From positions 74,894 through 138,893 of the forward strand of contig JAUSKB010000026.1 in NCBI GenBank assembly GCA_030647415.1: a DNA stretch of 64,000 nt. Reading direction: 5' to 3'. Shown here in pieces: positions 20,408 through 58,868 of this stretch. This DNA is from a bacterium. Lineage in GTDB: Bacteria; Patescibacteriota; Minisyncoccia; UBA6257; GWB1-50-10. Position numbers and translations under genes: made by a program. Below the pieces are notes generated by a model. The model was not told the origin of the DNA. It ran no database searches and saw only the letters and a program-made list of their open reading frames with translations. How positions within the stretch are numbered: the first letter of the stretch is position 1; each line of letters opens with the position of its first letter.

Positions 20408-20420
20408 GAAAAAGATTCAC

Positions 20421-20613: not shown

Positions 20614-20644
20614 ATTGACATTTATGTATAATTGGTGTTAACAT
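20614..20644 (+). promoter_or_regulatory. conserved promoter-like sequence ATTGACATTTATGTATAATTGGTGTTAACAT (second copy)
   Basis: Preceded by hairpin ACCAGCATATATGCTGGT plus T-run; heads the second low-GC islet. Confidence 0.5.
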
Positions 20645-20693
20645 ATAACCAGCGTTTTAGAATAAATCGTTCAAAAAACTAAAGGAGGCTGTA

Positions 20694-24934: not shown

Positions 24935-27876
24935 CCACTGCAGAACCAAAGAAAACGCCCGGCGGCTCCATCGAGCCCCGCGAGATTGTGGACGAGCTCC
25001 GGCAGTCCTACCTATCGTACGCCATGTCGGTTATCGTCTCGCGCGCCATCCCGGACGTCCGTGACGGCTTGAAACCGGTGCAACGGCGCATCCTCTGGGC
25101 GATGTGGGACACCGGACTCACCCACAGCGCGAAGTTCAAAAAGTCCGCGAATGTGGTCGGCGAGGTGCTCGGCAAGTACCACCCGCACGGCGACGTTGCG
25201 GTCTACGACACCATGGCGCGTATGGCGCAGGACTTCTCGCTCCGCGCACCGCTCGTCGACGGCCAGGGAAATTGGGGGTGTTTTACTAAAGATACAAAAG
25301 TAAAACTCGCCGACGGTCGAAACGCGAGCTTTAGTGAACTCGTAGAAGAACACCGCCAGGGCAAGAAAAACTATACCTTTGCCGTTAATTCGGCTGGGCT
25401 CATTTCCATCGCGGAAATAAAAAATCCGCGCCTCACAAAAAAGAATGCAGAGCTCGTCAGGGTGATTTTGGACAATGGCGAGAAGATTCGTTGCACGCCG
25501 AATCACCGCTTTATGTTAAAAGACGGCTCCTACAAAGAGGCACACTACCTCACAAACGGGAATAGTCTTATGCCCCTATACGAGAAGTTGTCCACAAAAG
25601 AGGGCCGATTAAACAGCGACCCACGCCCGGTTTTATATGAACTAAATAAAAACCATAAAGTTGTTAGGGTTGAAAAGTTAGCGGAGCAGGAGGATGTTTA
25701 TGATTTAACGATTGATAAATATCATAATTTTGCGCTCGCGGCTGGTGTCTTTGTGCACAATTCGATCGACGGCGACAGCCCGGCGGCAATGCGTTATACT
25801 GAGGCTAGGCTTACAAAAGTCGCCGAGGAGCTCTTGACGGACATCGAGAAGGAGACGGTCGACTGGGGACCAAACTACGACAACTCCCGCGTGGAGCCGC
25901 TCGTCCTGCCGGGGAAGCTCCCGAACCTCATTGTGAACGGCGCGGTCGGCATCGCGGTCGGTATGGCAACCTCCATCCCGCCGCACAACCTCGGCGAGGT
26001 TATAGACGCCATCGCGTACCTTGCCGAGCACGGGGATGCCACGATTGAGGAGCTTATGCAGTTCATCCCGGGTCCCGACTTCCCGACGGGCGGCGTAATC
26101 TACGACACGCGGGCGATCGCCGAAGCCTACCGGACCGGCCGCGGCGCCATCGTCATGCGCGCCGTCGCCGTCATCGAGGAGCGGACGGCGCGAGGGCACC
26201 AGATCGTCGTCACCGAAATTCCCTACCAGGTGAACAAGTCGGACCTCGTCACCTCCATCGCCGAGCTCGTCACGGAGAAGCGAGTGGAGGGCATCCGGGA
26301 CCTCCGCGACGAATCCGATCGCGATGGCCTGCGAATCGTCATCGAGCTGAAAAGCGACGCGGCGCCGCAAAAGATTTTAAATCAGCTCTACAAGTACACC
26401 GAGCTCCAGAAGAGTTTCCACTCAAACCTCCTCGCATTGACCGGCGGACTCCAGCCGGAGGTGCTCTCCCTGAAGGATATCCTCGCCGCATACCTCGACC
26501 ACCGGAAGCTGGTCGTGAAGCGGCGAACAGAGTTTGACCTCCGAAAGGCGACGGAGCGGGCACATATCCTCGAGGGGCTCGTGAAAGCCTTGGACCACAT
26601 CGACCGGATCATCGAGACCATCAAGAAGTCCAAGGACCGCGAGGATGCCCAGCGGAACCTCATCGCGAAGTTCAAGTTCTCGGAGCTCCAGGCGAACGCC
26701 ATCCTCGAAATGAAGCTCGCCGCGCTCGCGGCGCTCGAACGCAAAAAGCTCGAAGATGAACTTACGGAAAAGCGGAATATCATCGAGGAGCTCACTGCGC
26801 TCCTCAAGAACCCGAAGAAGATGCTGGGGCTCATCGTCACGGAGCTCGGCAATCTCAAGGCCGCCTTCCCGAGCGAGCGGCGCACGAAGGTGGTTCCGCA
26901 CGGGCTCACGGAGTTCCGCGAGGAGGACCTGGTGCCGCAGGAGGAGGCAATCGTCACGCTCTCGGTGGACGGCTACATCAAACGGATGCCGCCCGATACC
27001 TTCCGGGCGCAACGGCGCGGCGGGAAGGGGCTCATCGGGTTCGATTTGAAGGACGAGGACCATATCCGACAGCTCATGGCGGCACGAACCCACGATAACT
27101 GCCTCTTTTTCACGGACCGGGGGAAGGTTTTCCAGACCAAGGTGTTCGAGATACCCGCCGCGGAGCGGGCGGCTAAAGGCAAACTCGTGCACAACTTCCT
27201 CGAAGTCCCACCGAACGAGCATATCACGGCGATGGTCGCCTACGGCGGATCGTCGAGCGGGTACCTCACCATGGTGACGCAGGGCGGAACCATCAAGAAA
27301 ACGCCGCTCAAGGACTTTGTGAGCGTCCGGCGGACGGGCATTATCGCCCTCAGGCTCCAGCCGAACGACATTCTTGAGTGGGCCCAGCTCTCCTCCGGCG
27401 GCGACGAGATGCTCCTCGTGACCTCCGCCGGTCAGGCGATCCGGTTCCGTGAAAAGGATGTCCGTCCAATGAGCCGCACCGCGGGCGGCACGCGCGCAAT
27501 CCGCCTGAAGCGAAAGGACCAGGTCGCCGGCGTCGGCATCATACCCAAGGAGGCCGGCGCCGCCGACCGGAAGGGGCTCCGCGTGGTCGCCGTCATGGCC
27601 CGCGGGTTCGCGAAGCAGACGCCGCTCTCGGATTACAAGGTACAGCACCGCGGCGGCGGCGGCATCAAGACCGCGAAGGTGACGGAGAAAACAGGGCCGG
27701 TGATCGCCGCGGCGATCGTCGGACCGGAGACGGAGGTTGTGCTCGCCTTCTCGAAAAAAGGCCAGGCATTGAAAACACCGCTCTCGAACGTCCGCATCGC
27801 GGGTCGCGCGACACAGGGCGTCCGCATTATGAACGTCGAGGCGGATGATGCGCTGATTGGGGTACTCTGTCTGTAG
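24931..27876 (+). CDS. gyrA: DNA gyrase subunit A, containing a mini-intein
   Basis: 981 aa; conserved GyrA blocks ([15 protein letters not shown]-terminal beta-pinwheel repeats); 161-aa insertion between GNWG and SIDGD. Confidence 0.95.
25279..25761 (+). mobile_element. mini-intein (161 aa, no homing-endonuclease domain) within gyrA
   Basis: Begins Cys ([13 protein letters not shown], block A), TPNH block B, ends VFVHN followed by Ser+1; DNA is markedly AT-rich relative to the flanking gyrA sequence. Confidence 0.8.
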
Positions 27877-27918
27877 GTAACAAACAACCTACGACACACA
27901 ACTAACAACCTATTTATC

Positions 27919-28019
27919 CTGTTAGAAGTTTACAAATAATCATTTTCCTATGAATTTGATGGTTATATTCAAAACCAAAACTATGCAGGAATACAAATTT
28001 TGCGTAAACTTCTAACAGG
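27919..28019. repeat. Family A palindromic element, copy A5; the right end CTAACAGG is immediately followed by the ATG at 28020
   Basis: CCTGTTAGAAGTTTACAAATAAT ... TTGCGTAAACTTCTAACAGG-ATGAACCTC. Confidence 0.85.
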
Positions 28020-29324
28020 ATGAACCTCACAAAGAAACAGCTCATCATCCTCGGCGGTATCGTCCTTGTAGTCATCATTCTGGTGCTCATGGGGCTCGGT
28101 ATCATCCCGGGACTGAAGACTGGCCCGGTCACCATGAAACCGGTTTCGCTCACCGTATGGGGCGTAGAGGACGCCGTACAGGAGCTGCAACCCGCGGTGC
28201 AATCGTTCGCCAGGAACCACCCCGGTGCCACCGTCACCTACTGGCAGTTTACCGACACCGAGACGTACCACACCACCCTCCTCGAGGCGCTCGCCGCGGG
28301 CACGGGACCGGATATCTTCGCCATACGGAACACCGAGGTGATGCGCCATGCCTCGAAGCTCGTCGCAATGCCGAAAGAGCGGCTCTCGCTCCTCACTCTC
28401 CGAAACACGTTCGCCCCCGTGGTGGAGCGTGATTTTGTGGTAAACGGCGGGGTCGTTGCGCTGCCGCTTTCCATAGACACGCTCTCACTCATCTATAATC
28501 GGGACCACTTCAACGAGGCGGGCATCGTTTCTGCTCCCGCCACCTGGGACGACCTCGTCGCCATTGCGCCGCGGCTTTCGGTCGTTGACGACTCGCGCCG
28601 GGTCACTCGCGCTTCCATAGCGCTTGGCGGTTCGGGTAGTACCATACCGCGCGTCAGCGACATTATTTCGGCATTGATGCTTCAGGGTGGCATCGTACCC
28701 GTCGGGCCCGACTGGGGCGGCGCCGGTTTCGCAACCCGCGCAGGATATGACGCGGTGAACTTCTACCTGCAGTTTTCGAACACCGGAAGCCCGCTCTACA
28801 CCTGGAATGAGGGGATGCCGAATGCTGTGGATGCGTTCGCACAAGGACGGGTCGCTATGATTATCGACTACGCCCGCGCACTGCCGGACATCCGGGAGCG
28901 AAACCCGCTCATGAACTTCGCCGTCGCACCACTCCCCCAGCAGAAGGGGGCGGAGCGGTCAAAGACCATGGCCTCCTACTGGGGCTATACGGTTTCCCGC
29001 CAATCGAAGCAGGCCCGGCTCGCGTGGGACTTCATCGTGGAAACAGCAACGAACCCGCAGGTGGTCAGTGCATACTTGAATGCTTCAAAACGCCCGCCGG
29101 CGATACCGAAATTCATCGAAGCGTACCGCGACAATCCCAACCTCGCCGTATTCGCCCAGCAAACGCTCACCGCCGATTCCTGGCCGATGCCGAACCGGGA
29201 CCTGGTAGGGGGCATATTCTCCGACATGGTGACGACGGTGCTTGAGAATCGGGCGAGCGTCGAAACGGCCGTAGGCCGCGCGCAGAGCGATATTTCGCGA
29301 CTCATCGGGTCGCGGCCGCGGTAA
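28020..29324 (+). CDS. extracellular solute-binding protein (ABC transporter, family 1), membrane-anchored
   Basis: 434 aa; N-terminal TM anchor, SBP_bac_1-like fold; starts MNL, identical first 9 nt to the gene at 54068. Confidence 0.65.
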   Translation: MNLTKKQLIILGGIVLVVIILVLMGLGIIPGLKTGPVTMKPVSLTVWGVEDAVQELQPAVQSFARNHPGATVTYWQFTDTETYHTTLLEALAAGTGPDIFAIRNTEVMRHASKLVAMPKERLSLLTLRNTFAPVVERDFVVNGGVVALPLSIDTLSLIYNRDHFNEAGIVSAPATWDDLVAIAPRLSVVDDSRRVTRASIALGGSGSTIPRVSDIISALMLQGGIVPVGPDWGGAGFATRAGYDAVNFYLQFSNTGSPLYTWNEGMPNAVDAFAQGRVAMIIDYARALPDIRERNPLMNFAVAPLPQQKGAERSKTMASYWGYTVSRQSKQARLAWDFIVETATNPQVVSAYLNASKRPPAIPKFIEAYRDNPNLAVFAQQTLTADSWPMPNRDLVGGIFSDMVTTVLENRASVETAVGRAQSDISRLIGSRPR

Positions 29325-32141: not shown

Positions 32142-32154
32142 GAAAAAGGATTTA

Positions 32155-32255
32155 CCCTGTTAGAGTTTTACAAACACTTTAGTTATATGCATTTGGTTGG
32201 TACCGCATACCACCGGTATCAAGCATAGTAGTGTGCGTGTAAAACTCTAACAGGG
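32155..32255. repeat. Family A palindromic element, copy A6
   Basis: TAAGAAAAAGGATTTACCCTGTTAGAGTTTTACAAACAC ... GTGTGCGTGTAAAACTCTAACAGGGTAAAAGAAAAAGGAGGG. Confidence 0.85.
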
Positions 32256-32277
32256 TAAAAGAAAAAGGAGGGATTTA

Positions 32278-32379
32278 CCCTGTTAGAAATTTACATACAC
32301 CCATACCACATGATGTCGTCTGTCTCCTGAAACTGCACCGTATTCATGAATACGGTGTGCGTGTAAATTTCTAATAGGG
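32278..32379. repeat. Family A palindromic element, copy A7 (tandem with A6)
   Basis: CCCTGTTAGAAATTTACATACAC ... GTGTGCGTGTAAATTTCTAATAGGG. Confidence 0.85.
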
Positions 32380-35707: not shown

Positions 35708-35792
35708 GGGCGAGTGGCGGAACTGGCAGACGCGCACGGTTTAGGGCCGTGTTCCGAAAGGAGTGTGGGTTCGACCCCCACCTCGCCCACCA
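35708..35792 (+). tRNA. tRNA-Leu (anticodon UAG), class II with long variable arm, CCA encoded
   Basis: GGGCGAG TG GCG GAACTGGCAGA CGC G CACGG TTTAGGG CCGTG (variable arm) GTGGG TTCGACC CCCAC CTCGCCC A CCA. Confidence 0.85.
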
Positions 35793-38006: not shown

Positions 38007-38107
38007 CCCTGTAAGAGTTTTACATACACGCTTTCATTTTGAACATCTATTGCCCTGTAATACGAATGGAACACAGTGAATGGCGTGCTGGTAAAACCCT
38101 AACAAGG
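38007..38107. repeat. Family A palindromic element, degenerate copy A8
   Basis: CCCTGTAAGAGTTTTACATACAC ... GGTAAAACCCTAACAAGG; the left end lies 12 nt from the integrase-remnant start. Confidence 0.7.
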
Positions 38108-38197
38108 TGAGCTACAGTATTGCGCAACACGTCGTTTTCCAGTTTCTGAGCTATTTTTGACATTTTTGGGGTTCCTTGGTACCATGAAAACAATCGT

Positions 38198-41295: not shown

Positions 41296-41506
41296 CCCTG
41301 TTAGAGTTTTACAAATACACCTGTACAAGCTGAATTATTTGTCACCTCATACCAAGCTGTGCACAACCCAACGGCGTGCCCCGTGAGAGATTTACGCGCA
41401 AACTACTTGCTGGGAAATGGTTTTGTTATAATCAGTAAGTGAAATTCGATACTAGGAAATGGTCTGTAAATCTCTAACGGGGCGTGCAAGTAAAACTCTA
41501 ACAGGG
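41296..41506. repeat. Family A palindromic element, copy A9 (outer, 211 bp), carrying a nested copy
   Basis: Left CCCTGTTAGAGTTTTACAAATACAC at 41296; right GCAAGTAAAACTCTAACAGGGT at 41487-41506. Confidence 0.75.
41389..41482. repeat. Family A variant copy A10, nested inside A9
   Basis: CCCCGTGAGAGATTTACG ... TGTAAATCTCTAACGGGG. Confidence 0.7.
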
Positions 41507-41519
41507 TAAACTTAAGTAT

Positions 41520-42797
41520 ATGAATGAACCGTCGAATCCCCAACCGACATCCTGGTCGCCACAGCCACCGCGTCCGTCCGTAGCCGTAGGCGGGGGGGGG
41601 CCTCGTCCGCCCCAACCGACCTTCGGCGGGACAAACTCCACCCTCGGCACGGGGGAGGGGGAGGTGCCGCTCGCGAAACCGCCCGCCTCGTCGGTGAGTG
41701 TCCGAACTATGGCGTCGGACCTCGCCTCGTTGCAGTCAACCGGCGGGACACAGCCGCGACCCTACGCGCCCTCGCCGGCTGGTGGAGCCGGAGCGACTCC
41801 ACGGCCCATGTCCCCGCCGAACGTGCCGCCCGCGTCGCCCATGCCTCCAAGCGCGCCCCGTCCATTCAATGCGCCTTCCACAGCGCCGCAACCGCCGGTA
41901 CCACCGCCCACTGGACGGCCGGGCGTCCCGAATATGCCCCAGACCCCACAACGCGGACCGGCGCCTGCAAAGAGCTCTAAGGGATTCCTCGTCGGTACCA
42001 TTATTGTTGTCGCCGTCATCGGGCTCGGCGCGCTCGGCTACTTCGTCGTCTACCCCCTCATCGCGGAACCTGCTGTTTCCGAGCCGCCACCACCCGCGCC
42101 CCCGGAACCGGCCCCCGTGCCAGAGCCGCCGGCACTGATTATCACCGAACCAACATCAACGCCGGCCACACCAACATCAACGCCCTCCGATGCACTCCCT
42201 ACCCCGTTGCACACATCACTCTTCAGAGCGCCGGCTGACCTAACCGAGGAGCTCATACTCGTATCTTCGGACCTAACGAGCTTCCGCTCCCAGATTCCGT
42301 TTGATACCGCAGAGGTTTCCATTCTTCGAGAAATCAATGTCGCCCTGCCAAGCGCGCCTTCACAGCCGCTGCTCGGAACCGGTGGGGTGAACACAGATCC
42401 AATCACCCTCGAGCAACTTCTGCCGTTCGTCGCGCCTGGACTCTTCGACCGCGACACAATGCGCGCCTTCGGGAACGACGTAACGGTGTTCACCTATACC
42501 GACTCGAAGGGGACCTGGCCCGGATTCGCCGTCCGCGCAACAAATAATGTCCCGCTTGCCGCGGTGCAGATGAAGGTAAACCAGACCCTTGAACAGGCAG
42601 TTGCCTTGAAACAGTTCTTCCTTACCAACCCAGGAACGGCGGGGGCATGGAAGTCGGGTTCCACCGGGAACGTCCAGAACCGGTACCAGACCTTTTCACT
42701 TCCTGGTGCGGCGTTGAACTACGCCTGGACCGACCGGACGCTCGTCGTCGCCACCTCGTACGACACTTTCCAGACTGCGCTCGGACGGATAAAATAG
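41520..42797 (+). CDS. Pro-rich single-pass membrane protein, hypothetical
   Basis: 425 aa; N-terminal P/S/A-rich region (contains a G9 run), one TM helix, C-terminal globular domain. Confidence 0.55.
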   Translation: MNEPSNPQPTSWSPQPPRPSVAVGGGGPRPPQPTFGGTNSTLGTGEGEVPLAKPPASSVSVRTMASDLASLQSTGGTQPRPYAPSPAGGAGATPRPMSPPNVPPASPMPPSAPRPFNAPSTAPQPPVPPPTGRPGVPNMPQTPQRGPAPAKSSKGFLVGTIIVVAVIGLGALGYFVVYPLIAEPAVSEPPPPAPPEPAPVPEPPALIITEPTSTPATPTSTPSDALPTPLHTSLFRAPADLTEELILVSSDLTSFRSQIPFDTAEVSILREINVALPSAPSQPLLGTGGVNTDPITLEQLLPFVAPGLFDRDTMRAFGNDVTVFTYTDSKGTWPGFAVRATNNVPLAAVQMKVNQTLEQAVALKQFFLTNPGTAGAWKSGSTGNVQNRYQTFSLPGAALNYAWTDRTLVVATSYDTFQTALGRIK

Positions 42798-44906: not shown

Positions 44907-45623
44907 TTACTTTTTACCTTTTACTACCGCAATCGGCTTCGCGCCGGGGAGCATCAACAACCCGGAACCTTCCATGAGAATCTCCTGGTAGCGCGGATTG
45001 AATTGCCGAATCGTCTCGGGGTCGATGCCGTACCGCGCGGCGATAGTTGTGAGTGAATCGCCAGCTATGACCGCGTAGCGCACGCCGGAAACCGGCAGTA
45101 TGGTAAGTTCAGCGCCGGGACGGATCGTGCGCCCCACGGACAGGTTCGCCCACCGGATCGTCTCCGGCGTTATGCCGAACCGGGCGGCGAGCGCGGCGAG
45201 CGTGTCACCTCGCTGTACACGGTACCGGATGGTCCCGTCCGCTACGGGAATGGTTACGGTAAACGGCATCGCGGCTGCAGTAAGGTCGCTCTCCGTCACC
45301 GTCCCCAGGTCGGGGACAGCGCCTGCCTGTCCGGCCCGCCCAGATGACTCGGTCGGACGGGTAGGCAGCGCTGACAATCCCACCGCACCCGCCCGGATGA
45401 CTCGGTCGGACGGGTCATCGAACGGATTTATCTCGCCTGTCTGCGCAGGCGGGTTTGGAAGTGTTGTTATATCTGAAAATACACCCTCCCCGTCCGACCG
45501 AGTCATCCGGGCGGGCACGCCGTCGTTTTTGGACTCATCCACATAGCTGCTCACAATCTTGTCTGCGGAGACCCCAGAAGCGCCAATAAGGCCTGTAATT
45601 CCCAGGAGAATGAGCGACCACAT
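44907..45623 (-). CDS. LysM-domain protein (two LysM repeats); linker region carries three copies of the 28-bp dispersed repeat
   Basis: YRVQRGDTLAALAARFGI and YAVIAGDSLTTIAARYGI; N-terminal TM anchor. Confidence 0.8.
   Translation of the reverse strand: MWSLILLGITGLIGASGVSADKIVSSYVDESKNDGVPARMTRSDGEGVFSDITTLPNPPAQTGEINPFDDPSDRVIRAGAVGLSALPTRPTESSGRAGQAGAVPDLGTVTESDLTAAAMPFTVTIPVADGTIRYRVQRGDTLAALAARFGITPETIRWANLSVGRTIRPGAELTILPVSGVRYAVIAGDSLTTIAARYGIDPETIRQFNPRYQEILMEGSGLLMLPGAKPIAVVKGKK
45336..45363. repeat. 28-bp dispersed repeat GCCCGCCC(A/G)GATGACTCGGTCGGACGGG, copy 1 (inside the LysM gene)
   Basis: Further copies at 45389-45416 (same orientation), 45490-45518 (inverted), 47774-47801 and 54641-54672 (variant). 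Confidence 0.85.
45389..45416. repeat. 28-bp dispersed repeat, copy 2 (inside the LysM gene)
   Basis: Exact core match. Confidence 0.85.
45490..45518. repeat. 28-bp dispersed repeat, copy 3, inverted (inside the LysM gene)
   Basis: CCCCGTCCGACCGAGTCATCCGGGCGGGC. Confidence 0.85.
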
Positions 45624-45770: not shown

Positions 45771-45895
45771 TACACAAATGTCTAACAGGGTACACCCTGT
45801 TAGAGTTTTGCACATACTCCGTTATATTCCATATGGATGTTTCAGAAAGACCAATTTCTTCTAGTAAAAAGATGATCTGCAAAACTCTAACAGGG
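45771..45895. repeat. Family A palindromic element, copy A11, plus an extra solo right-half immediately upstream
   Basis: CACAAATGTCTAACAGGGT-ACACCCTGTTAGAGTTTTGCACA ... TGCAAAACTCTAACAGGGTAA-ATG (ksgA start). Confidence 0.8.
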
Positions 45896-45898
45896 TAA

Positions 45899-46708
45899 AT
45901 GCGAGCACGAATCGGACAGCATTTTCTGAAAGACGCGAGTGTTGCTCGGCGTATTGTCTGCGCGCTCCCCATCGCCGAGCACGCGACAGTTATTGAGGTC
46001 GGGCCGGGGAAGGGCGCGCTTACCGCATTCCTCGCGGAGCGCGTGGGGGAGGTTCCCGAGGCGGAGCTCGTCTGTATTGAACGAGACCCTGCCCTTGCGG
46101 CGGCGCTTGCCGCTCAATCCCAATCGTGGCGAGGTGTGCTGCCCACCGTACACACCGGCGACGTGCGCACACTCCTCCGCGAGGTCGTCCGGAGCGTTCC
46201 CCGGACGCGGCGGTACGCCATCATCGGGAATCTGCCGTACTACCTCACGGGGCACCTCTTCCGAATCCTCGGCGAGCTGCCGCGCCTGCCTGAGGCGGCG
46301 GTCTTCATGGTGCAGCGGGAGGTCGCGGAGCGGCTTGCCGCCGTGCCGCCGTGCATGAACATGCTTGCGGCGAGCGTGCAGGCGTGGGCGAAACCCTCCA
46401 TCCTATTCCGTGTGCCACCATCCGCATTCTCGCCGAAACCGAGCGTGGAAAGCGCGGTGGTGTCGCTTGTCGCGGTAAGAACCACCCCGCCACCTGCAGA
46501 ATACTATCGGGCCGCCCGGACACTCTTTCGGCAACCACGGAAAACAATTTTGAATAACCTTGCGGCTGAAATCGGGCGCACGGACGCCGTGCGCATCCTC
46601 ACCGAAGCGGGGCTCAACCCATCGGACCGTCCGCAGACACTTTCACCGGACAAGATTCTTTTGCTATCAAAACACCCGCCGTTCACCGAAGCGGCGGGTG
46701 ATGTTTGA
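45899..46708 (+). CDS. rsmA: 16S rRNA (adenine1518/1519-N6)-dimethyltransferase RsmA/KsgA
   Basis: GQHFL and VIEVGPGKGALT motifs. Confidence 0.85.
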   Translation: MRARIGQHFLKDASVARRIVCALPIAEHATVIEVGPGKGALTAFLAERVGEVPEAELVCIERDPALAAALAAQSQSWRGVLPTVHTGDVRTLLREVVRSVPRTRRYAIIGNLPYYLTGHLFRILGELPRLPEAAVFMVQREVAERLAAVPPCMNMLAASVQAWAKPSILFRVPPSAFSPKPSVESAVVSLVAVRTTPPPAEYYRAARTLFRQPRKTILNNLAAEIGRTDAVRILTEAGLNPSDRPQTLSPDKILLLSKHPPFTEAAGDV

Positions 46709-47646: not shown

Positions 47647-47973
47647 ATTTCCACAGAGCGACCTGACCCGTTCCCGCTCGCGGGCGAGGACCTTCCGGAG
47701 GCCATCGAGGTCGTTCTGTACCGCACGCTTTGCCTTCAAGCTTTCGACGAGCGTGTTCATACCTGCCCGATCGGCCCGCCCGGATGACTCGGTCGGACGG
47801 GCAGGCGGGCCCGAGGCGTCATGTTGATATACCTTAATGAAGCGGCCGAGCGTCTCTTCACTCGCGTCCGCGAGCCGGTCCTTCAGTACGCCCTGGTCCG
47901 CCGGCGAAAGCCCGGCGCCGCCCACGATGCGGAAGGCGACCGCAAGCGCATTCGCATTCGGTTGTGGATTCAT
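47647..47973 (-). CDS. hypothetical protein containing an in-frame copy of the 28-bp repeat
   Basis: 109 aa; ...PPARPTESSGRADRAG... is encoded by the repeat at 47774-47801. Confidence 0.35.
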
Positions 47974-51570: not shown

Positions 51571-53883
51571 ATGCGCACGAAACGAACGGTAAGCATCTTC
51601 CTCGCCGCCGCGCTCCTCACCGCGGGCGGGTTCTTTGCTGTAACTAATACTGCACACGCGCTGATGTACGGCAATAATTCTAATCCTATTAAGCAGTGGC
51701 TAGTAGGTACAGGCCTCGACATCCTCCAGGCGTTCGCTACCGGCATTTCGTACATCCTGAACTTCCTTGGGGGTCTCGCCTTCGCCTTCGGGAACATGCT
51801 GACCCAGACGATGTTGGCACTCAACTACCAGGTGCTCGACAGTTCGAACACCATCGTAACCGTCGGGTGGGGCATCACGCGGGATGTGGCGAACCTCGGC
51901 TTCGTCCTCCTCATTATCTTGGTCGCGCTCGCGACCATCGTCCGCTACCCCTCGGAGTACCAGGCGCAAAAGCTCCTGCCCCGCCTCATCGCCGCCGCCC
52001 TCCTTGTGAACTTCTCGATCGCCATCGTAACGCCGCTCATTGATTTTTCGGACACCTTGACGCAGAGCTTCGCATCGCGTATCGGTGGCGATGATTTGCC
52101 CGGCATTCCTGGGTCCGGATTCGTCGGGCGAATCTCAAATGCCTTCGGCCCCCATCGGCTTCTTATCCCCCCTGCGGGAGGTTTACCTGAACCGGTAGGT
52201 TTCAATACTTTTAGCAAGGCGTTCCTCACGACCGTCGGCGGGCTCTTTTTCAGCTTCATATTCACCTGGCTCGCCGCCCTCGTCATGCTCGCCATCGCCT
52301 TCATGCTCTTCCTCCGGTATGTGCACCTGACCTTCCTCCTCGCCATCGCGCCTATTGTCTGGCTCTTCTGGGTCTTCCCGGGGCTCGAGAAGCACTGGAG
52401 CACCTGGTGGAGCGATTTCCTCAAGTGGGTTTTCTTCGCGCCCGCGGTCATGTTCTTCATCTACCTCGCGGTTACGGCGATGGATGCTATGGGATCGATG
52501 CCTGTCGAGGGGCTCACGGGGTCGGACTTCTTTGAAACCTTTATTCTTTCGATCATCTCGCAGGGAACCCAGATGGCCGTCCTCGGCGCCTTCCTTGTCG
52601 GCTCGCTCATCGTCGGCCAGAAGTTCGGCATCGCCGGGGCGGGGGCGGCATTGAACATCGCAAAGGCGGCAAAAACGCAGGGGCTGAAGCTCGCGGGCCA
52701 GCGGGTGAAGCTCGCGGGGCGGGCGGCGGCGGGGAAGGCTAGTACGGTACTCAAGGGCGGTCTCGAAGAAAAGGGTTTGATGAAGTACCCGAAGAAGGGG
52801 TTGAATCTCATGGGCCGTGGCACCTCGTTCGTGCTCGGCGGTGGTAAAAAGTTAGATGAGGCATTAAAGGTAAAGGACACTGATTCGGGTTTCAAGAAGC
52901 TTGGCAAGCGTTTTGCGGGTGGTGTTCTTGGCGTCACTGGCGGACGCGCCCTCTTGAAGGGTGCGGGTGGGCTTGAGAAAACACTCACTACCGCCTCCGG
53001 CCGCGACGTGAAGGTGGACTCGGTCGGCGGCGCGATGTTCAAGACCGTGAAGGGGGAGTTCCTGAAAGAGATGGGCTTTGAACAGGAAAAGCCTGAGAAG
53101 ACGACGGACGATCATGTGAAGGATCTGAAGGATGTTGTGAAACAGAAAAAAGCATTGAAAGACAAGGGCGCGCTCACGCCAGAATCAGAGAAGGAGTGGG
53201 ATAAGAAGATCGAGCGGGCGAAGGGGATGGTCCGCAACTCGCTCGAGCGGCCAGGGACCCCAGAGGGGTTGGACAGGCAAATCGAGCAGCTGAAGAGCAA
53301 GCAGGCGGAATTCTACGACCCGAAGAATGGCCTCGATGGCAGCGTATTCGACGACCTCATTAAGGAAAGGGTGATTGAGCGGGATCGGATCATAGAACGC
53401 GAGGGCAGGAAATCCGACGCGACACGCGAGGTTGAGGCGAAAATAGGCGAGCTGAACGGAGGGCGAATCGCCGCGCTGAAGGCGGGGGACCCGGAGGTCA
53501 CCGTCAAAACAAAACAGACGCAACCGGACGGCACCGAAGTGGAGGTTGAGCGGCAGCAGAAGTTGAGTTCGCTGTTTGATGAACAGATCGTGGCCGCGGA
53601 AAAAATCCGAACCGCCCTATTCGACGTCGACGAGCGACTGCGAAAGAACGAGCCGTGGAAGGACCAACAGCTCCAAATGGGGCTTGAAAAACTTCGAGAC
53701 AACATTACGGGCTTGAACAAGGGAATCACCGGTCTCTCCAGGGTCGTTGACAACACGAAAAACGCCGCGTTAGTGAAGCCGGGGTTGATCCAATGGGAAC
53801 CGTTTAAACAAACAGAAGAGAAGGCTAGCGGCGGTGCGAATAAGAAAGGAGATGGTGGCACCGTAGACACCGACACCTCGTAA
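51571..53883 (+). CDS. VirB6/TrbL-like polytopic membrane protein with a long K/E/G-rich C-terminal tail
   Basis: 770 aa; signal peptide, at least 6 TM helices over the first 400 aa, then a hydrophilic repetitive tail. Confidence 0.5.
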   Translation: MRTKRTVSIFLAAALLTAGGFFAVTNTAHALMYGNNSNPIKQWLVGTGLDILQAFATGISYILNFLGGLAFAFGNMLTQTMLALNYQVLDSSNTIVTVGWGITRDVANLGFVLLIILVALATIVRYPSEYQAQKLLPRLIAAALLVNFSIAIVTPLIDFSDTLTQSFASRIGGDDLPGIPGSGFVGRISNAFGPHRLLIPPAGGLPEPVGFNTFSKAFLTTVGGLFFSFIFTWLAALVMLAIAFMLFLRYVHLTFLLAIAPIVWLFWVFPGLEKHWSTWWSDFLKWVFFAPAVMFFIYLAVTAMDAMGSMPVEGLTGSDFFETFILSIISQGTQMAVLGAFLVGSLIVGQKFGIAGAGAALNIAKAAKTQGLKLAGQRVKLAGRAAAGKASTVLKGGLEEKGLMKYPKKGLNLMGRGTSFVLGGGKKLDEALKVKDTDSGFKKLGKRFAGGVLGVTGGRALLKGAGGLEKTLTTASGRDVKVDSVGGAMFKTVKGEFLKEMGFEQEKPEKTTDDHVKDLKDVVKQKKALKDKGALTPESEKEWDKKIERAKGMVRNSLERPGTPEGLDRQIEQLKSKQAEFYDPKNGLDGSVFDDLIKERVIERDRIIEREGRKSDATREVEAKIGELNGGRIAALKAGDPEVTVKTKQTQPDGTEVEVERQQKLSSLFDEQIVAAEKIRTALFDVDERLRKNEPWKDQQLQMGLEKLRDNITGLNKGITGLSRVVDNTKNAALVKPGLIQWEPFKQTEEKASGGANKKGDGGTVDTDTS

Positions 53884-53967
53884 TCTAATCTCAACAAGCA
53901 GAGGCAAGCTGAGGCCGAGCGGCAGCGGAAAGCCGGTGGAGCAACACCAAATCCATAACCCATTTAT

Positions 53968-54067
53968 CCTGTTAGAAGTTTACAGATAGTTATTTATATG
54001 GAAAATATTATTGTTATGCAAAATAAAATTGTGAAGTGGCGGTGTTTGCGCGTAAACTTCTAACAGG
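53968..54067. repeat. Family A palindromic element, copy A12; the right end is followed directly by the ATG at 54068
   Basis: CCTGTTAGAAGTTTACAGATAG ... TTGCGCGTAAACTTCTAACAGG-ATGAACCTC. Confidence 0.85.
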
Positions 54068-55072
54068 ATGAACCTCTCGAATATAACTTTTGAGCTGCTC
54101 TCCGAACGGTACGAGGAGATACCGGAACGGTTTCGGGAGCTCCTCGAGTCACCCGGCACAAAAACAACACTCGTGCGCATCGGGGCGCAACACGCGCTTG
54201 ACCACGAACGGCAAACACTCCTTGAGGCGCTGGTCGGTCTTGTCTTCACCGGTTTCCTCTCCCCGGATGACCTCGCGGGGGAGTTTGTCGACCGCCTCTT
54301 CCTGAACTTCGTCCACGCCCGCGCGCTCGCCCGCGAGGTGGACGAGACCTTCTTCGCGCCGCACCGCCGCGACCTCGTTCGCGTCTACAACCCCGTGGGC
54401 GGGGTACCGCAGGGCCCAACCGTCCGGAGTGCGGAACGACCTATGATTGGATTGCCTTCACAAGTAGGAAAGACGATTTCACTTGAATCCATCGGCGCTT
54501 CAGGCGGTAGGGAACAAAAGCTTCCCATTAACGAGGTTGCGGCGCCGCTCGTGATTCTCGGCTCCAGCTCCCCCACCCTCCGCAAACCGATTATTCCGAA
54601 CCGCCCGCCGGAACGCCTGTTTGCCAGCCAGGCAGGCCTGCCTACCCATCCGACCGAGTTATCCGGGCGAGCCGGACAAACGGTTTCGGAGAAGCCGGTG
54701 TACCACTCACCCTTTTCCTTCCGGTTCCCGTTCCGCTCACCGCAGGCGGCGCGTACCCCGCTGGGCGACTCCACGGGACCGACCGCGACCGTCCGATTGC
54801 CCGGCAGTGCGGCACCAGCGCAGAAGAAGGATGGGCTTCATATTGTCCACTATGCGGAAACACGCGGGAGACTCGGCCCGCCGCTATCAACCGGAAAGGG
54901 GGGGGTAGTGAACCTGGACCAGCTGGGGGCGCAGCAAAGAAAAGAGACAAGAGAAAAAGGACAAGAGACGCCCATCGCACCGACAACCGACAACCGACAA
55001 CCGACAACCATCCCGAAACCACAGCCGAAGATCGATGGGAACACCATAGACCTCCGGGCAAATAAACTCTAA
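54068..55072 (+). CDS. hypothetical Pro-rich protein containing an in-frame variant of the 28-bp repeat
   Basis: 334 aa; starts MNL, identical 5' end to the 28020 gene; PTHPTELSGRAGQT is encoded by the repeat at 54641-54672. Confidence 0.5.
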   Translation: MNLSNITFELLSERYEEIPERFRELLESPGTKTTLVRIGAQHALDHERQTLLEALVGLVFTGFLSPDDLAGEFVDRLFLNFVHARALAREVDETFFAPHRRDLVRVYNPVGGVPQGPTVRSAERPMIGLPSQVGKTISLESIGASGGREQKLPINEVAAPLVILGSSSPTLRKPIIPNRPPERLFASQAGLPTHPTELSGRAGQTVSEKPVYHSPFSFRFPFRSPQAARTPLGDSTGPTATVRLPGSAAPAQKKDGLHIVHYAETRGRLGPPLSTGKGGVVNLDQLGAQQRKETREKGQETPIAPTTDNRQPTTIPKPQPKIDGNTIDLRANKL

Positions 55073-55125
55073 ATCCGAAACTCTAAATCCTAAACAAGCA
55101 CGAAATTCTAAACTCTAAACCACTG
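55066..55125. repeat. Family C repeat (CTCTAAATCCGAAAC(C/T)CTAAATCCTAAACAA...), forward arm C1
   Basis: Inverted partner at 55516-55580; together they bracket the four-helix-bundle gene. Confidence 0.8.
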
Positions 55126-55129
55126 CATT

Positions 55130-55495
55130 ATGGAACCGAGCGTGGGCTTGAAACGGTATGATTTGGAGGCGCGAACGCTTCAATTTACAAGGGATGTCAT
55201 TTCGTTCGTTTCCGCCCTTCCCCGGAGTATTGCCAATATTGAAATCATCAAACAGCTCATCCGGGCGACTGGTTCGGTGGGAGCGAATTATATAGAAGCG
55301 AATGAGTCCGTAAGCAGAAAGGACTTTCTCTTACGAGTTAAGATTTCCAAAAAAGAGTCGCGAGAGGCAATATACTGGTTGGAGCTCGTACAATGCTCAA
55401 ATGAGCAATGTGAAGTTAGGAGGCGTGAATTGATCCGAGAAGCGACCGAGCTCATGAAAATTCTCGGTTCAATCGTCGAAAAATCATCTCGGTGA
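55130..55495 (+). CDS. four-helix-bundle protein (TIGR02436 / 23S rRNA intervening-sequence protein; Avd-like)
   Basis: 121 aa; RATGSVGANYIEANESVSRKDFLLRVKISKKESREAIYWLEL matches the family core; lower GC than neighbours. Confidence 0.7.
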   Translation: MEPSVGLKRYDLEARTLQFTRDVISFVSALPRSIANIEIIKQLIRATGSVGANYIEANESVSRKDFLLRVKISKKESREAIYWLELVQCSNEQCEVRRRELIREATELMKILGSIVEKSSR

Positions 55496-55515
55496 TATTG
55501 CATTCATGATTTTTC

Positions 55516-55580
55516 CCTGTTTCGGATTTGAGATTTGGAATTTGTTTAGGGTTTAGGGTTTCGAATTTAGAATTTATCTG
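55516..55580. repeat. Family C repeat, reverse arm C2 (GTTTAGGGTTTAGGGTTTCGAATTTAGAATTT)
   Basis: Reverse complement of the C1 motifs. Confidence 0.8.
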
Positions 55581-55581
55581 T

Positions 55582-56079
55582 ATGAATTTTCAGGTCCCCC
55601 AATTCATCTCGGAAAAGGCCCACATCATCGGGCCGCTCACCTTCGCCCAGCTCGGCTACCTCATGGGCGCGGGCTTTATCGCGTTCCTTTTCTTCTCATT
55701 TTTCACGCCGTTCGTCGCGGGCTCGTTTTCTGCGGTGTTTGTCGGGGTCGCGCTCGCGCTCGCGCTCGGAAAGTTCAATGGGGTGAGTATTGCATCCATC
55801 CTTGTCGGCGCGGTCGGGTACCTCTGGAAGCCACGGGTGTACACCTGGCAACGGACATTTGCCACACAGACCTTTGACGCCTCAAGCGTAGATAAAATAG
55901 AGGCGATGCGGCGGAAGATGGGCGTCGAGGAAAAACTCAAGGCGATTGCGCTTTCGGTCACCACCGGAAAGATCTTCGCGCCAAAGGCGCCGGAGGTCGC
56001 CGCTGATGCCCAGCGATTCCAAATGGTGAGCTACCTGACCGGTGAAAAGAAGCTCGCGAAGAGAATCGACTACAGGTAG
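55582..56079 (+). CDS. small membrane protein, possibly VirB3-like (by position upstream of virB4)
   Basis: 166 aa from the internal ATG; 2-3 TM helices; matches the VirB3-VirB4 gene order. Confidence 0.3.
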   Translation: MNFQVPQFISEKAHIIGPLTFAQLGYLMGAGFIAFLFFSFFTPFVAGSFSAVFVGVALALALGKFNGVSIASILVGAVGYLWKPRVYTWQRTFATQTFDASSVDKIEAMRRKMGVEEKLKAIALSVTTGKIFAPKAPEVAADAQRFQMVSYLTGEKKLAKRIDYR

Positions 56080-56089
56080 AATAAGGTAA

Positions 56090-56228
56090 GCTCTAAATCC
56101 GAAACCCTAAATCCTAAACAAATTCGAAATTCCAAACACACTCATAAATGATGATGAAACATGATGCCATTTCGAATTTCGTGCTTGGAATTTGTTTAGA
56201 GTTTCGATATTAGGATTTAGAATTTCTA
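56090..56228. repeat. Family C palindromic element C3 (forward and reverse arms, no cargo)
   Basis: GCTCTAAATCCGAAACCCTAAATCCTAAACAAATTCGAAATTCCAA ... TTGGAATTTGTTTAGAGTTTCGATATTAGGATTTAGAATTTC. Confidence 0.8.
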
Positions 56229-56893
56229 TGGAAAAGGGTCTCCCCACACAATCATTTGTCGCCGTCAAAGAGGTTCGAAACGGCATCGTCCACCTGAAAG
56301 ACGGCGGCCTGCGCCAGCTCCTCATCGTCTCCGGCGTGAACTTCGACCTGAAGGCGGAGGAGGAGCAGGCACTTATTCTGAACACCTTCCAAAATTTCCT
56401 GAACACGCTCGACTTCACGATGCAGTGCTTCATCCATTCCCGGAAGGTGAATGTGGACACCTACCTGGACCGCATGCGCTCGCGGCAGCTCGAGGAACCG
56501 AATGAGCTCTTGAAGATCCAGATTGCCGAGTATATCGACTTCATCGCCGCGTTCGTGGACCAGAACGCCATCATATCAAAAACCTTCTTTGTGGTGGTCC
56601 CGTACGATCCGCCAGTGACGTCCGGAGCGGCGACCAAGGGCGTGCTTGGCTTCTTCAAGAAACGCGAGGCGGCGACGGTCATCGCGGACGAGGCGGCAAC
56701 GCTCCAGGAGCACTTGAAGCAGCTCGAACAGCGGGTGACACAGGCGACCGAGGGCCTCCTCCAGATCGGGCTACGGGCAGTCCGGCTCCGCGACGACGAG
56801 ACCATCGAGTTGTTCTACAACCTCTACAATCCGGAACTGGTCGAGAAGAAGGGGCTCGACATAGCAAAGCCAGACAAAGCCGGAAAATCCTAA
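56228..56893 (+). CDS. virB4: VirB4/ConE-family ATPase, N-terminal fragment (split gene)
   Basis: 222 aa; IVHLKDGGLRQLLIVSGVNFDLKAEEEQALILNTFQNFLNTLDFTMQ fits the CagE/TrbE/VirB4 N-terminal domain pattern; 222+587 aa equals a normal VirB4 length. Confidence 0.5.
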   Translation: MEKGLPTQSFVAVKEVRNGIVHLKDGGLRQLLIVSGVNFDLKAEEEQALILNTFQNFLNTLDFTMQCFIHSRKVNVDTYLDRMRSRQLEEPNELLKIQIAEYIDFIAAFVDQNAIISKTFFVVVPYDPPVTSGAATKGVLGFFKKREAATVIADEAATLQEHLKQLEQRVTQATEGLLQIGLRAVRLRDDETIELFYNLYNPELVEKKGLDIAKPDKAGKS

Positions 56894-57012
56894 GCACGAA
56901 ACCCTAAATCCTAAACAAACCCGAATGTTCCAAATCCGAAACGGTGCGCATGCGTTTGTGGTTTCGTGCTTCGATATTGTTTCGGATTTCGATATTAGAA
57001 TTTAGGATTTCT
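56893..57012. repeat. Family C palindromic element C4, lying between the two virB4 fragments
   Basis: AGCACGAAACCCTAAATCCTAAACAAACCCGAATGTTCCAAATCCGAAAC ... GTTTCGTGCTTCGATATTGTTTCGGATTTCGATATTAGAATTTAGGATTTCT. Confidence 0.8.
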
Positions 57013-57038
57013 AACACAGAACTTATACCACTACGACC

Positions 57039-58802
57039 ATGAAGTTCTCCATCCCTAAAGCCTACACCCCCTCTCCCGACGACCTGCCGAGCGTCATCGC
57101 GCCTGCGGGTGTCGAGGTGAATCCGTCGCACCTGAAGCTTGGCGACTACCTCGTGAAGACCTTCTTCATCTTCACCTACCCGCGGTACCTCACCTCGAGC
57201 TGGTTCTCGCCCATCATCAATCTGACGGAGATGATGGAGATCTCGATCTTCTTCCACCCGATGGACACCGCGACGGCGCTCCGGGACCTTCGGAAGAAGG
57301 TGACGCAAATCGAGGCGGAGCTTTCCGAAAAGGAGGAGAAGGGGCTGGTGCGGGACCCGCAGCTCGAGACGGCGTACCAGGACGTGGAATCACTCCGCGA
57401 CTCGCTCCTCCAGGCGCGCGAGAAGCTGTTCTCGGTCGCTGTCTACATCACTCTTTACGGGAGGAACGCGGACGACCTCGAGAAGGTCGCGCAGGCGACG
57501 CAATCCCTCCTTGAGTCAAAGCTGGTGTATATGAAACCGGCGCTCTTCCGCCAAATCGAGGGATTTACCTCCATGCTTCCCATTGGACGCGACGTGCTGG
57601 AAATTCGGACCCCCTTGAACTCCGGCCCCGCCTCCTCGCTCTTCCCCTTCGTCTCGCCGGACCTCTCGTCGGACAAGGGAATCCTGTACGGCGTGAACCT
57701 CCACAACAACTCGCTTGTCATCTTCGACCGCTTCTCGCTCGAGAACGCGAACTCGGTCATCTTCGCAAAATCCGGTGCTGGAAAATCGTTCACCGCGAAG
57801 CTCCAAATCCTCCGGTCGCTCATGGTCGGCACGAACGTCATTGTCATCGACCCGGAGAACGAGTACCAGAACCTTGCGAACGCCATCGGCGGCAGCTACT
57901 TCAAGATCTCTCTCACCTCCCCGAACCATGTGAACCCGTTCGACATCCCCCTTATGCCCGCGGGGGAGGAGCCGGCAGACGTCTTCAAGTCGCACGTCCT
58001 GAATCTCACTGGCCTCGTGAAGCTCATGCTGGGCGCCATCACGCCGGAGGAGGACTCACTCCTCGACCGTGTTATTACCGAGACCTATGCCTCCCGCGAC
58101 ATCACCGCGGCGACCTTCGGCGAAGCCAAGGAAGAGCTGAATCCACCCCTCCTCGAGGACCTGCAAATTATTCTCCAGAACACCGAGGGCGGACAGGGAA
58201 TGTCCCAGCGCCTTGAGAAGTTCGTGCACGGCTCGTACGCCGGGTTCACGAACGCGCCGACGAACGTCGACATCAAGAACCGGCTCATCGTCTTTTCGAT
58301 GCGCGACCTCGAGGAGGAGCTCCGGCCGGTCGCGATGTACATCATCACGAACTTCATCTGGAACCTCATCCGCTCGGAGTTGAAACCCCGGCTCCTCATG
58401 ATCGACGAGGCGTGGATCATGATGAAGTATAAGGATTCGGCGCAGTTTCTCTTCGGCCTCGTGAAGCGCGCCCGAAAGTACTACCTCGGCATCACCACCA
58501 TCTCCCAGGAGGTTGAGGATTTCCTGAAATCTGACTATGGCCGCCCCATCATCACGAACTCCTCCATTCAGCTCCTGATGAAGCAGTCGCCGACCTCCAT
58601 CGAGGCGGTCGCGAAGGCGTTCGACCTGACCGAGGGGGAGCGGGAGCTCCTCCTTGAGGCGGGGATCGGCGAGGGGCTCTTCTTCGCGGGATTGAAACAC
58701 GTCGCCATTAAGGTGGTCGCCTCATACACCGAGGACCAGATTATTACTACCAACCCGGAACAGCTGCTGGAGGCGAAGGGGCTCGGGGGACAGAAGACAT
58801 AA
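57039..58802 (+). CDS. virB4: VirB4/TrbE/ConE-family type IV secretion ATPase, C-terminal portion
   Basis: 587 aa; Walker A FAKSGAGKSFT at about residue 247, Walker B LLMIDEAW; placing Walker A at residue 247 of a full-length protein would be unusually far N-terminal, consistent with a missing N-terminus. Confidence 0.85.
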   Translation: MKFSIPKAYTPSPDDLPSVIAPAGVEVNPSHLKLGDYLVKTFFIFTYPRYLTSSWFSPIINLTEMMEISIFFHPMDTATALRDLRKKVTQIEAELSEKEEKGLVRDPQLETAYQDVESLRDSLLQAREKLFSVAVYITLYGRNADDLEKVAQATQSLLESKLVYMKPALFRQIEGFTSMLPIGRDVLEIRTPLNSGPASSLFPFVSPDLSSDKGILYGVNLHNNSLVIFDRFSLENANSVIFAKSGAGKSFTAKLQILRSLMVGTNVIVIDPENEYQNLANAIGGSYFKISLTSPNHVNPFDIPLMPAGEEPADVFKSHVLNLTGLVKLMLGAITPEEDSLLDRVITETYASRDITAATFGEAKEELNPPLLEDLQIILQNTEGGQGMSQRLEKFVHGSYAGFTNAPTNVDIKNRLIVFSMRDLEEELRPVAMYIITNFIWNLIRSELKPRLLMIDEAWIMMKYKDSAQFLFGLVKRARKYYLGITTISQEVEDFLKSDYGRPIITNSSIQLLMKQSPTSIEAVAKAFDLTEGERELLLEAGIGEGLFFAGLKHVAIKVVASYTEDQIITTNPEQLLEAKGLGGQKT

Positions 58803-58868
58803 GATAAAAACAATTTCCAAGTCCCAATTTCTAATTTCTAAAAATACTAAGAAAAAGGATAGATATAT

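Follow-up and report, generated by a model that had tools for sequence, protein, structure and literature searches.

The 64-kb stretch of contig JAUSKB010000026.1 analysed here (the window) is a chromosomal segment of a high-GC (~58%) genome of the Patescibacteria (candidate phyla radiation, CPR). It contains an operon of seven co-directional genes that resembles a type IV secretion system, and one spacer of this operon holds a cassette consisting of a small gene for a four-helix-bundle (4HB) protein and two flanking inverted arms. The gene (S23p/23S_rRNA_IVP; 55130-55495, + strand) is intact and encodes 121 amino acids (pI 9.3). An earlier sequence-only reading had assigned it to the protein family known from intervening sequences (IVSs) of 23S rRNA, and the profiles TIGR02436 (66.8 bits, cut-off 24, profile positions 3-107 of 109) and PF05635 (50.9 bits, cut-off 33.8) confirm this assignment. 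The lower GC content noted in that reading is also real, with values of 0.46 overall and 0.51 at third codon positions (GC3), compared with a GC3 of 0.68-0.85 in the neighbouring genes. The AlphaFold model of the monomer (pLDDT 92) consists of four helices, and its best Foldseek matches are the S23p-family structures 2RLD (E 1.4e-5, TM 0.76/0.84) and 2GSC (TM about 0.78), which a sequence-profile search of the PDB retrieved at 5.9e-22 and 8.9e-20, respectively. The family invariants Q42, R45, S49, N53 and E56 are all present; the last four form the RxxxSxxxNxxE part, invariant in the family alignment, of the published motif GxxRxxxSxxxNxxE (PMC3936711), and Q42 stands where that motif starts with Gly. 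A nuclease motif is missing from the fold, whose structural relatives are pentamers that bind nucleic acids. Homology to Avd, the accessory protein of diversity-generating retroelements (DGRs), had also been claimed. At the level of the fold this kinship holds, with Avd (4DWL, 8UB7) ranking after 2RLD and 2GSC in Foldseek (TM 0.70-0.76, E 0.03); at the level of sequence it does not, as the window protein has no match to Pfam bAvd (PF22296) at E <= 0.01, and neither single-sequence nor profile searches with it reached Avd in the PDB.

The left arm of the cassette (55059-55125, + strand) is built from about nine units of ~7 nt (CTCTAAA, TCCGAAA, CTCTAAA, TCCTAAA, CAAGCAC, GAAATTC, TAAACTC, TAAACC), and the right arm (55516-55580, + strand; …TTGTTTAGGGTTTAGGGTTTCGAATTTAGAATTT) is an inverted copy of it. 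As previously proposed, the two arms match each other in inverse orientation, with 76% complementarity over 62 nt (55059-55120/55519-55580). Both pair in the minimum-free-energy fold of 55050-55590 (z = -4.9 versus shuffles), and the resulting stem encloses the open reading frame (ORF) as in a classical 23S rRNA IVS. Alignment of 16 arms yielded the consensus, from outer to inner, tCTAAAt.CtAA..tCtAAAtcCTAAACAA, in which CTAAA recurs every 7 nt. The core of this arm family (family C) is AAATCCTAAACAA on the left, with TTGTTTAG / TTGTTTAGRRTTT as its right counterpart. Left and right arms match at 71% of positions, and the difference AAATCC versus AAACTC between them recurs across different hosts. 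The inner arm of many family members contains the start codon together with the first ~8 codons; the corresponding residues form the disordered N-terminus of the AlphaFold model. A role of the arms as suppliers of stop codons in all three frames was considered and dropped, as it applies to the left arm of the window cassette only.

The cassette is situated directly downstream of a 334-aa host gene (54068-55072) and directly upstream of a PrgI-like gene (55582-56079). The operon further comprises a 770-aa gene (51571-53883), a 221-aa gene (56228-56893), a gene for a VirB4/TraC-like ATPase (57039-58802) and two additional members. The best matches of the VirB4 protein, at 79% identity, are found in Candidatus Jorgensenbacteria and allied metagenome-assembled genomes (MAGs). 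We fetched the orthologous operon from 80 species-level related Patescibacteria genomes and mapped the genes on each. Gene order is kept across these relatives, and overlaps of stop and start codons are frequent between their operon genes. The spacer between the 334-aa and PrgI-like genes measures 509 nt in the window versus a median of 10.5 nt in the 80 relatives; the corresponding values are 148 versus 38 nt for the PrgI-like/221-aa gene spacer, 145 versus 4.5 nt for the 221-aa gene/VirB4 spacer and 66 versus 5 nt for the spacer following VirB4. Since the operon spacers of the relatives span about 4-40 nt, the enlarged spacers of the window are insertions. The closest relative with a contig, L334 (PrgI 66% identical), whose orthologue of the 770-aa protein matches TrbL_3 (TrbL/VirB6-type family), has a 58-nt spacer without a 4HB gene after its 334-aa homologue and a next spacer of 52 nt. 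Its 334-aa homologue terminates with …DGNTVDLRRK and a stop, and the window host protein with …DGNTIDLR followed by ANKL and a stop; comparison with L334 and other orthologues sets the conserved end of the host gene at …DLR. The left arm contributes the last four host codons (ANKL) together with the stop codon (55070-55072), and the right arm stops 1 nt short of the PrgI-like ATG (55582). Together, these boundaries delimit an inserted segment of about 55058-55581. The cassette is therefore an insertion into the operon spacer.

Gene-less forms of the same arm family occupy the next two spacers, in agreement with the sequence-only reading. One palindrome (56084-56230, arms 56084-56136/56170-56230; -34 to -41 kcal/mol) lies between the PrgI-like and 221-aa genes, and another (56884-57015, arms 56884-56934/56955-57015; -36 to -46 kcal/mol) between the 221-aa and VirB4 genes, where one of its arms includes the stop codon of the 221-aa gene (56891-56893). 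Long, gene-bearing and short, gene-less forms have their terminal inverted repeats in common, and we infer that the adjacent palindromes derive from the cassette or from a sibling of it. The motif TAAATCCTAAAC (<=2 mismatches) occurs 25 times in the window versus 2.45 expected (maximum 7 in 100 shuffles), with 17 of the 25 matches concentrated in 55070-57011. A degenerate trace had further been suggested at 58803-58865. This claim fared poorly: the spacer between VirB4 and the next gene holds at most a weak, possible single-arm remnant (58803-58868; units TTTCCAA, GTCCCAA, TTTCTAA, TTTCTAA) with no inverted partner, no fold (-6 kcal/mol), no motif match and few TTTCTAA-like units. Elsewhere, only three gene-less family-C palindromes were found near cassettes in 412 kb of flanks, which marks the dense palindrome cluster of the window as unusual. 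In viral contigs, matches to the bare 15-mer CTAAATCCTAAACAA are mostly at chance level; seven of them, on six contigs, are true gene-less palindromes, none with a 4HB gene.

The same operon has received small foreign ORFs repeatedly and in separate events. Among the 80 relatives, ten carry one in one of three operon spacers: 23S_rRNA_IVP genes in L011, L013, L017, L047, L053, L060 and L062, PDDEXK_3 genes in L066 (4933-5286) and L075 (1321-1731), and a GIY-YIG gene (86 aa) in L021 (5744-6004). Together with the window copy, all 11 cargo ORFs are on the operon strand. On both sides of most of these ORFs, ~7-nt units form inverted arrays, with a unit that varies from case to case (TAGCCAC, GACTAAC, CACGAAC, ATGACGA and others). 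Sub-threshold matches to Pfam bAvd were seen for some relatives. Many other spacers of the relatives contain gene-less palindromes of several families; L075 has family-C-like ones in two or three other operon spacers. A single heptamer-like array, for example AAATCGGAAATTCTAAACCTTAAA, is seen in the 24-nt spacer between the 334-aa homologue and the PrgI-like gene of L063, and also in L051, L053 and L005; such unpaired arrays could be remnants of lost elements.

Beyond this operon, gene and arms occur together in unrelated genomes. The proteins most similar to that of the window (60-69% identity) occur in Patescibacteria, Omnitrophica, Dehalococcoidia, Deltaproteobacteria and MAGs of Methanophagales and other Euryarchaeota. 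Five homologues sampled by protein (L062, L086, L087, L091 and L082; 52-69% identity) all possess the arm family of the window, including the archaeal L087, a Methanophagales MAG. Each is solitary and flanked by unrelated host genes, namely a histidine kinase with an Hpt protein, DUF2207 with a pseudouridine synthase, glutamate-synthase-like genes, a sortase with a SpaA-type protein or, in a Harrisonbacteria genome, the PrgI-like and 221-aa genes. A metagenome scan for both arm cores spaced 380-410 nt apart, for which ~0.04 chance matches are expected by our own estimate, returned at least 120 matches. Among the matches listed, 114 of 120 contain, between the arms, a 4HB ORF with 49-68% identity to the window protein, and 92 different flank contexts are represented. 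Across 12 cassettes, arm similarity follows protein identity (Spearman rho 0.75, the pairs not being mutually independent), with arm scores of 34.5-53 at >=50% protein identity versus a median of 14 below 45%. Both in the window cassette and in the arm-pair loci the 4HB protein is the only ORF of the element, and in the window and the metagenome loci the GC content of the element is always below that of the host locus. Contexts in CPR genomes and metagenomes are mostly housekeeping genes. Rfam at gathering thresholds reported nothing for 15 family-C loci, crude probes revealed no rRNA context among the fetched loci of the arm family, and cultured phage genomes are without a homologue of the window protein. 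The cassette is a conserved unit: its gene and arms form a pair that is transferred jointly from genome to genome. It has been widely transferred, apparently also between domains.

The unit is co-oriented with host transcription. Taking one site per context among the matches listed, the upstream neighbour shares the strand of the 4HB gene at 62 of 66 sites (p 2e-14), compared with 56 of 66 for the downstream one; where both neighbours were callable, both are co-oriented at 40 sites, the upstream one only at four, the downstream one only at three and neither at none. As the arms are symmetric and random insertion would result in 50%, the orientation bias points to a dependence on host read-through transcription. 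Promoter and terminator scans gave chance-level results only, and the lack of a promoter signal is consistent with such a dependence. Considering the near-absolute co-orientation with the upstream gene, the 4HB gene, which has no recognisable promoter of its own, is probably read through from the host operon.

Both gene and arms are under purifying selection. In six family members sharing an amino-acid identity of 0.64, nucleotide identity at codon positions 1, 2 and 3 is 0.69, 0.79 and 0.43, and the arm cores are recognisable throughout. In addition, 19 metagenome loci (L216-L332, for example L240 8507-8937) carry a family-C cassette at a leuC|leuD-type site, where it separates the two subunit genes, large and small, of an aconitase-family dehydratase, throughout one diverged lineage. 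Here element and flanks have similar median distances (0.26 versus 0.25; Mantel r 0.67, p 2e-4), and this co-divergence identifies the insertion as old and vertically inherited. Over the 19 loci, dN is 0.148 and dS 1.82 (dN/dS 0.083); 17 of the ORFs are intact and two truncated. The arms are conserved as well, with a p-distance of about 0.21 against a dS of 1.8.

Distant 4HB genes of cultured organisms display related arrangements. The plasmid-borne homologues (L335-L339: Anabaena, Nostoc, Planktothrix, Chlorohelix and Pseudanabaena) are solitary inserts too. In Anabaena cylindrica PCC 7122 and Nostoc sp. TCL26-01 the gene is located between cas2 and cas1, in Planktothrix between the DISARM gene drmD and MmeI, in Chlorohelix between a helicase-related gene and an N6-methylase, and in Chondrinema between RND pump genes. 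Seven of the nine plasmid homologues reside in defence loci (cas2|cas1, csx2|cas1, drmD|MmeI, helicase|methylase), and earlier surveys have placed the 4HB family in cas loci (PMC3936711, PMC10910872). The published associations of 23S_rRNA_IVP with cas genes may reflect an insertion habit or a genuine bias towards these loci. Five of seven inspected distant homologues are flanked by 6-7-nt units in inverted arrays, and the arm heptamers of more distant 4HB genes differ from those of the window family. The Planktothrix arms are (AATCCCC)n, the complement of GGGGATT, an over-represented heptamer in Nostoc and Anabaena (PMC4692102). In Xanthomonas vesicatoria, an orthologue of XCC0516 (the protein of structure 2GSC; 88% identical) separates accB from accC and has the same orientation as both (L342 2490-2931); it is flanked by GGGAATCGGGAGTGGAGAATCGGGAATCGG and an inverted copy agreeing at 26 of 30 positions (GGGAATC arrays). 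GGGAATC has been described as strongly over-represented in the intergenic regions of Xanthomonas (about 70 convergent pairs per genome); the study in question treats the heptamers as G-quadruplex repeats without an association with mobile elements and does not mention the 4HB gene (PMC4692102). In our literature collection, which is incomplete, we found no paper linking 4HB genes with heptamer arrays beyond the Coxiella IVS. From these few loci, we propose a link between dispersed heptamers and 4HB genes.

The window harbours the other cargo family of rRNA IVSs as well, as an independent cassette, which bears out another claim of the earlier reading. A PDDEXK_3 (GxxExxY-type) gene (6887-7303; 110.7 bits) is flanked by a perfect 22-nt inverted repeat (6851-6872/7340-7361) of AATAATGCGAAT units, and a gene-less palindrome of this family occupies the next spacer (7938-8091), after an RNase H-like 191-aa gene. 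A further palindrome family, TTTAYCCTGTTAGAAGTTTACA ... TGTAAACTTCTAACAGGRTRAA, is abundant and not in Rfam; it is found at no fewer than nine intergenic sites of the window (818-1056, 18192-18334, 20397-20540, 27894-28037, 32151-32306, 38082-38124, 41481-41523, 45852-45899 and 53944-54085), and one copy makes up the spacer that separates the 334-aa gene from the 770-aa VirB6/TrbL-type gene. A related family, CCCGTTAGAG...CTCTAACGGG, is present in spacers of L013, L024, L027, L029 and L032-L034, and a copy of it is nested within the family-C cassette of L082. Other repeats include a GC-rich sequence, CCCGCCCGGATGACTCGGTCGGACGGG, with direct and inverted copies at 45322-45516 and 47762-47806, the first cluster lying within an ORF called at 44907-45623 (- strand), and two 64-nt copies, 77% identical, at 8454-8517 and 20590-20653, which contain TTGACATTTATGNATAATT and may be a shared promoter-like element. 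An inverted repeat of 43 nt (34712-34754/35481-35523; 84% complementary, arms palindromic around CGGCCG) encloses a PaaX/Cas2-like 208-aa gene (- strand), with tRNA-Leu(TAG) just downstream (35708-35792). Between tRNA-Ile(TAT) and tRNA-Val(TAC), a 220-aa low-GC (0.42) ORF (3482-4144, - strand) with an HTH_23 domain and a LAGLIDADG-like motif, LYIAGLFLYWGEGSK, reaches with its 3' end ~10 nt into the tRNA-Ile gene. The GyrA gene (24931-27876, 981 aa) has an apparent intein-like insert, judged by eye only; by eye, the remaining large ORFs are FtsH, SHMT, FolD, RecA, FtsK, GyrA, PNPase and the like. Across the whole window, Rfam at gathering thresholds detected tRNAs only and no rRNA.

Taken together, these observations make it likely that the locus represents a horizontally spread IVS-type palindromic cassette inserted between the 334-aa and PrgI-like genes of a Jorgensenbacteria-like CPR bacterium. 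The term IVS-type covers protein family and architecture only, the flanks being protein-coding without an rRNA gene; the locus is an IVS-type cassette in an mRNA operon and neither a 23S IVS nor a DGR. According to this model, the unit would comprise one 4HB (S23p-family) gene and two inverted arms of ~7-nt units with the core AAATCCTAAACAA, and read-through of the host operon would transcribe the gene. The arms would probably be the sites to which the element's own 4HB protein, itself probably pentameric, binds specifically, since every 4HB subfamily has a heptamer of its own. Once transcribed, the arms could pair into a long stem and, by analogy with rRNA IVSs, might allow excision by RNase III (PMC4990558), which would free the host cistrons from the insert. 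The neighbouring palindromes of 130-150 nt would be gene-less versions of the element, comparable to MITEs (miniature transposable elements with inverted repeats) and to short ORF-less rRNA IVSs.

Several points weigh against this model. No filled/empty pair at near-identical sequence was found and no movement was observed. Exact-sequence look-ups with the window VirB4 and with the closest PrgI homologue (88% identity) yielded no contig and therefore no near-identical empty site, and the 4HB protein of the window is on record solely on a 1-kb contig. The cassette ends given here are therefore approximate, and in the junctions read, lacking a near-identical empty site, no consistent direct repeat that could be a target-site duplication was seen at the outer ends. 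No known recombinase is encoded by the element, nor a reverse transcriptase, transposase or nuclease. The taxon assigned to MAG-derived loci could be erroneous, and in two of the seven inspected distant homologues the arrays on both sides have the same sense and are not inverted. Moreover, arm mismatches are uncompensated and devoid of a sense-strand G·U bias (21 against 28). An RNA stem is thus not specifically supported, and protein-binding arrays fit better. A long stem can still form from the arms according to the fold, both strands folding about equally well, and the pattern appears more in keeping with arrays of sequence-specific binding sites than with a stem selected for pairing only. 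Finally, the strong purifying selection acting on a vertically inherited copy is as compatible with a gene that is addictive or useful to its host as with a selfish one.

This persisting selection makes a host-useful or addictive module the strongest rival with respect to function. The element would then be domesticated or addictive, stably maintained by the host and not currently mobile, with the arms as cis-regulatory sites; such a module could, for example, regulate by binding RNA or DNA, take part in defence or anti-defence, or be a processing site that regulates itself. The low dN/dS and conserved arms of the 19 co-diverging leuC|leuD insertions agree with such a role, as do the plasmid homologues in CRISPR-Cas, DISARM or helicase/methylase loci and the surveys reporting the family in cas loci. 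Yet the sporadic occurrence in the operon, with three different spacers and different subfamilies involved, speaks against it; the identity between CPR and archaeal proteins and the many unrelated contexts among the matches listed require frequent transfer; the contexts in CPR and metagenomes are mostly housekeeping genes; and gene-less copies exist. We regard this alternative as possible but rather doubtful, and it is compatible with a mobile origin.

The remaining explanations are considerably weaker. If the palindromes belonged to the host as regulatory elements of its intergenic regions (REP-like, terminators or RNase III sites) and a 4HB gene had landed in one of them, one would understand why each spacer of the window operon holds a palindrome, why other families are frequent in the window and why gene-less copies adjoin the cassette. 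However, the spacers of the relatives are short and without palindromes at these positions, the arms are unlike intrinsic terminators, and this 4HB subfamily comes with these arms in unrelated hosts too, an archaeal MAG among them; this last observation largely refutes the idea, which we judge very unlikely. A free-standing gene of the homing-endonuclease type that cuts empty alleles, like seg/mob of phage T4, would match a small solitary co-oriented ORF between conserved genes and the PDDEXK_3 and GIY-YIG genes in equivalent spacers; a fold related to nucleic-acid-binding pentamers and free of nuclease motifs, and the same conserved arms at many unrelated sites, contrary to site-specific homing, render it equally improbable. 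DGRs are common in CPR, and the Avd-like fold as well as the sub-threshold bAvd matches of some relatives might suggest an orphan Avd accessory gene, that is, a DGR remnant or satellite. By sequence profile, however, the window protein matches neither bAvd nor Avd, and more than 100 family members are solitary between unrelated genes. No reverse transcriptase was detected among the window ORFs scanned with Pfam, as the sequence-only reading had stated, and no direct repeat resembling a template/variable repeat pair exists in the 64 kb. These results refute a local DGR, and we consider a DGR origin of the cassette extremely unlikely.

The occurrence of the gene-plus-arms unit in many bacteria and archaea points to an unrecognised kind of mobile element. 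More speculatively, and with considerable reservation, 4HB (S23p) genes might define a whole unrecognised class of prokaryotic mobile elements, in which a non-enzymatic, probably pentameric nucleic-acid-binding protein and its cognate ~7-nt arrays spread with and without the gene. The 23S rRNA IVSs, the palindromic elements in spacers of CPR genomes, the Xanthomonas GGGAATC arrays and possibly the cyanobacterial STRR-like arrays would then be products of the same system, and copying might rely on a reverse transcriptase partnered in an Avd-like manner, or on a host enzyme of replication or repair, in trans. Since about 1990, the origin of 23S rRNA IVSs and the role of their conserved ORF have been in question, and a role of this ORF in mobility was suggested in 1993 (cited in PMC4990558). 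Our data indicate that the gene-in-a-stem unit of rRNA IVSs is common outside rRNA and that its arms co-evolve with the 4HB protein across bacteria and archaea. They provide a concrete, testable hypothesis, namely that the 4HB protein binds its own heptamer array, and Xanthomonas, with the solved structure 2GSC and the described GGGAATC family, is a tractable organism for it; Anabaena and Nostoc are further candidates. They also advise caution: 4HB genes inside cas or other defence operons should not be read as functional partners of these systems.

Among known systems, the 23S rRNA IVSs with an S23p ORF (Leptospira, Coxiella, Brucella) are similar to the cassette in protein family (PF05635/TIGR02436), in the position of the ORF in the loop of an inverted-repeat stem containing tandem heptamers, in a sporadic distribution that implies horizontal transfer and in the existence of short ORF-less versions. 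In the Coxiella IVS, tandem heptamers (GACAGAT) form part of the stem and RNase III cuts in the first repeat (PMC4990558). In contrast to these IVSs, the cassette is located in the spacer of a protein-coding operon and not in helix 25 or 45, and its arm family, defined here, is conserved across phyla. The gene-less palindromes of 130-150 nt resemble MITEs and other intergenic palindromes (Correia, RUP, ERIC, REP/BIME) in that they are intergenic and would be co-transcribed, and, as in MITEs, they share their arms with a longer gene-bearing form. Unlike in MITEs and REP elements, this long form encodes the 4HB protein only and no transposase or RAYT; the arms are arrays of 7-nt units instead of a single terminal inverted repeat, and no target-site duplication was seen in the junctions read, for which a near-identical empty site is lacking. 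With Avd, the window protein shares the four-helix-bundle fold, small size, basic character and pentameric relatives, whereas its gene is solitary, without reverse transcriptase, template or variable repeat, and scores below the bAvd thresholds. Like seg/mob of phage T4, 4HB genes are small solitary ORFs occurring sporadically, on the same strand, between tightly packed conserved genes; unlike them, they lack a nuclease domain, possess conserved inverted arms and have many unrelated targets. The GGGAATC repeats of Xanthomonas and the GGGGATT repeats of Nostoc and Anabaena (PMC4692102), finally, are intergenic 7-nt arrays that often form convergent pairs near gene ends, and, like the arms in the window, GGGAATC arrays flank the 4HB gene of Xanthomonas and AATCCCC arrays that of Planktothrix.

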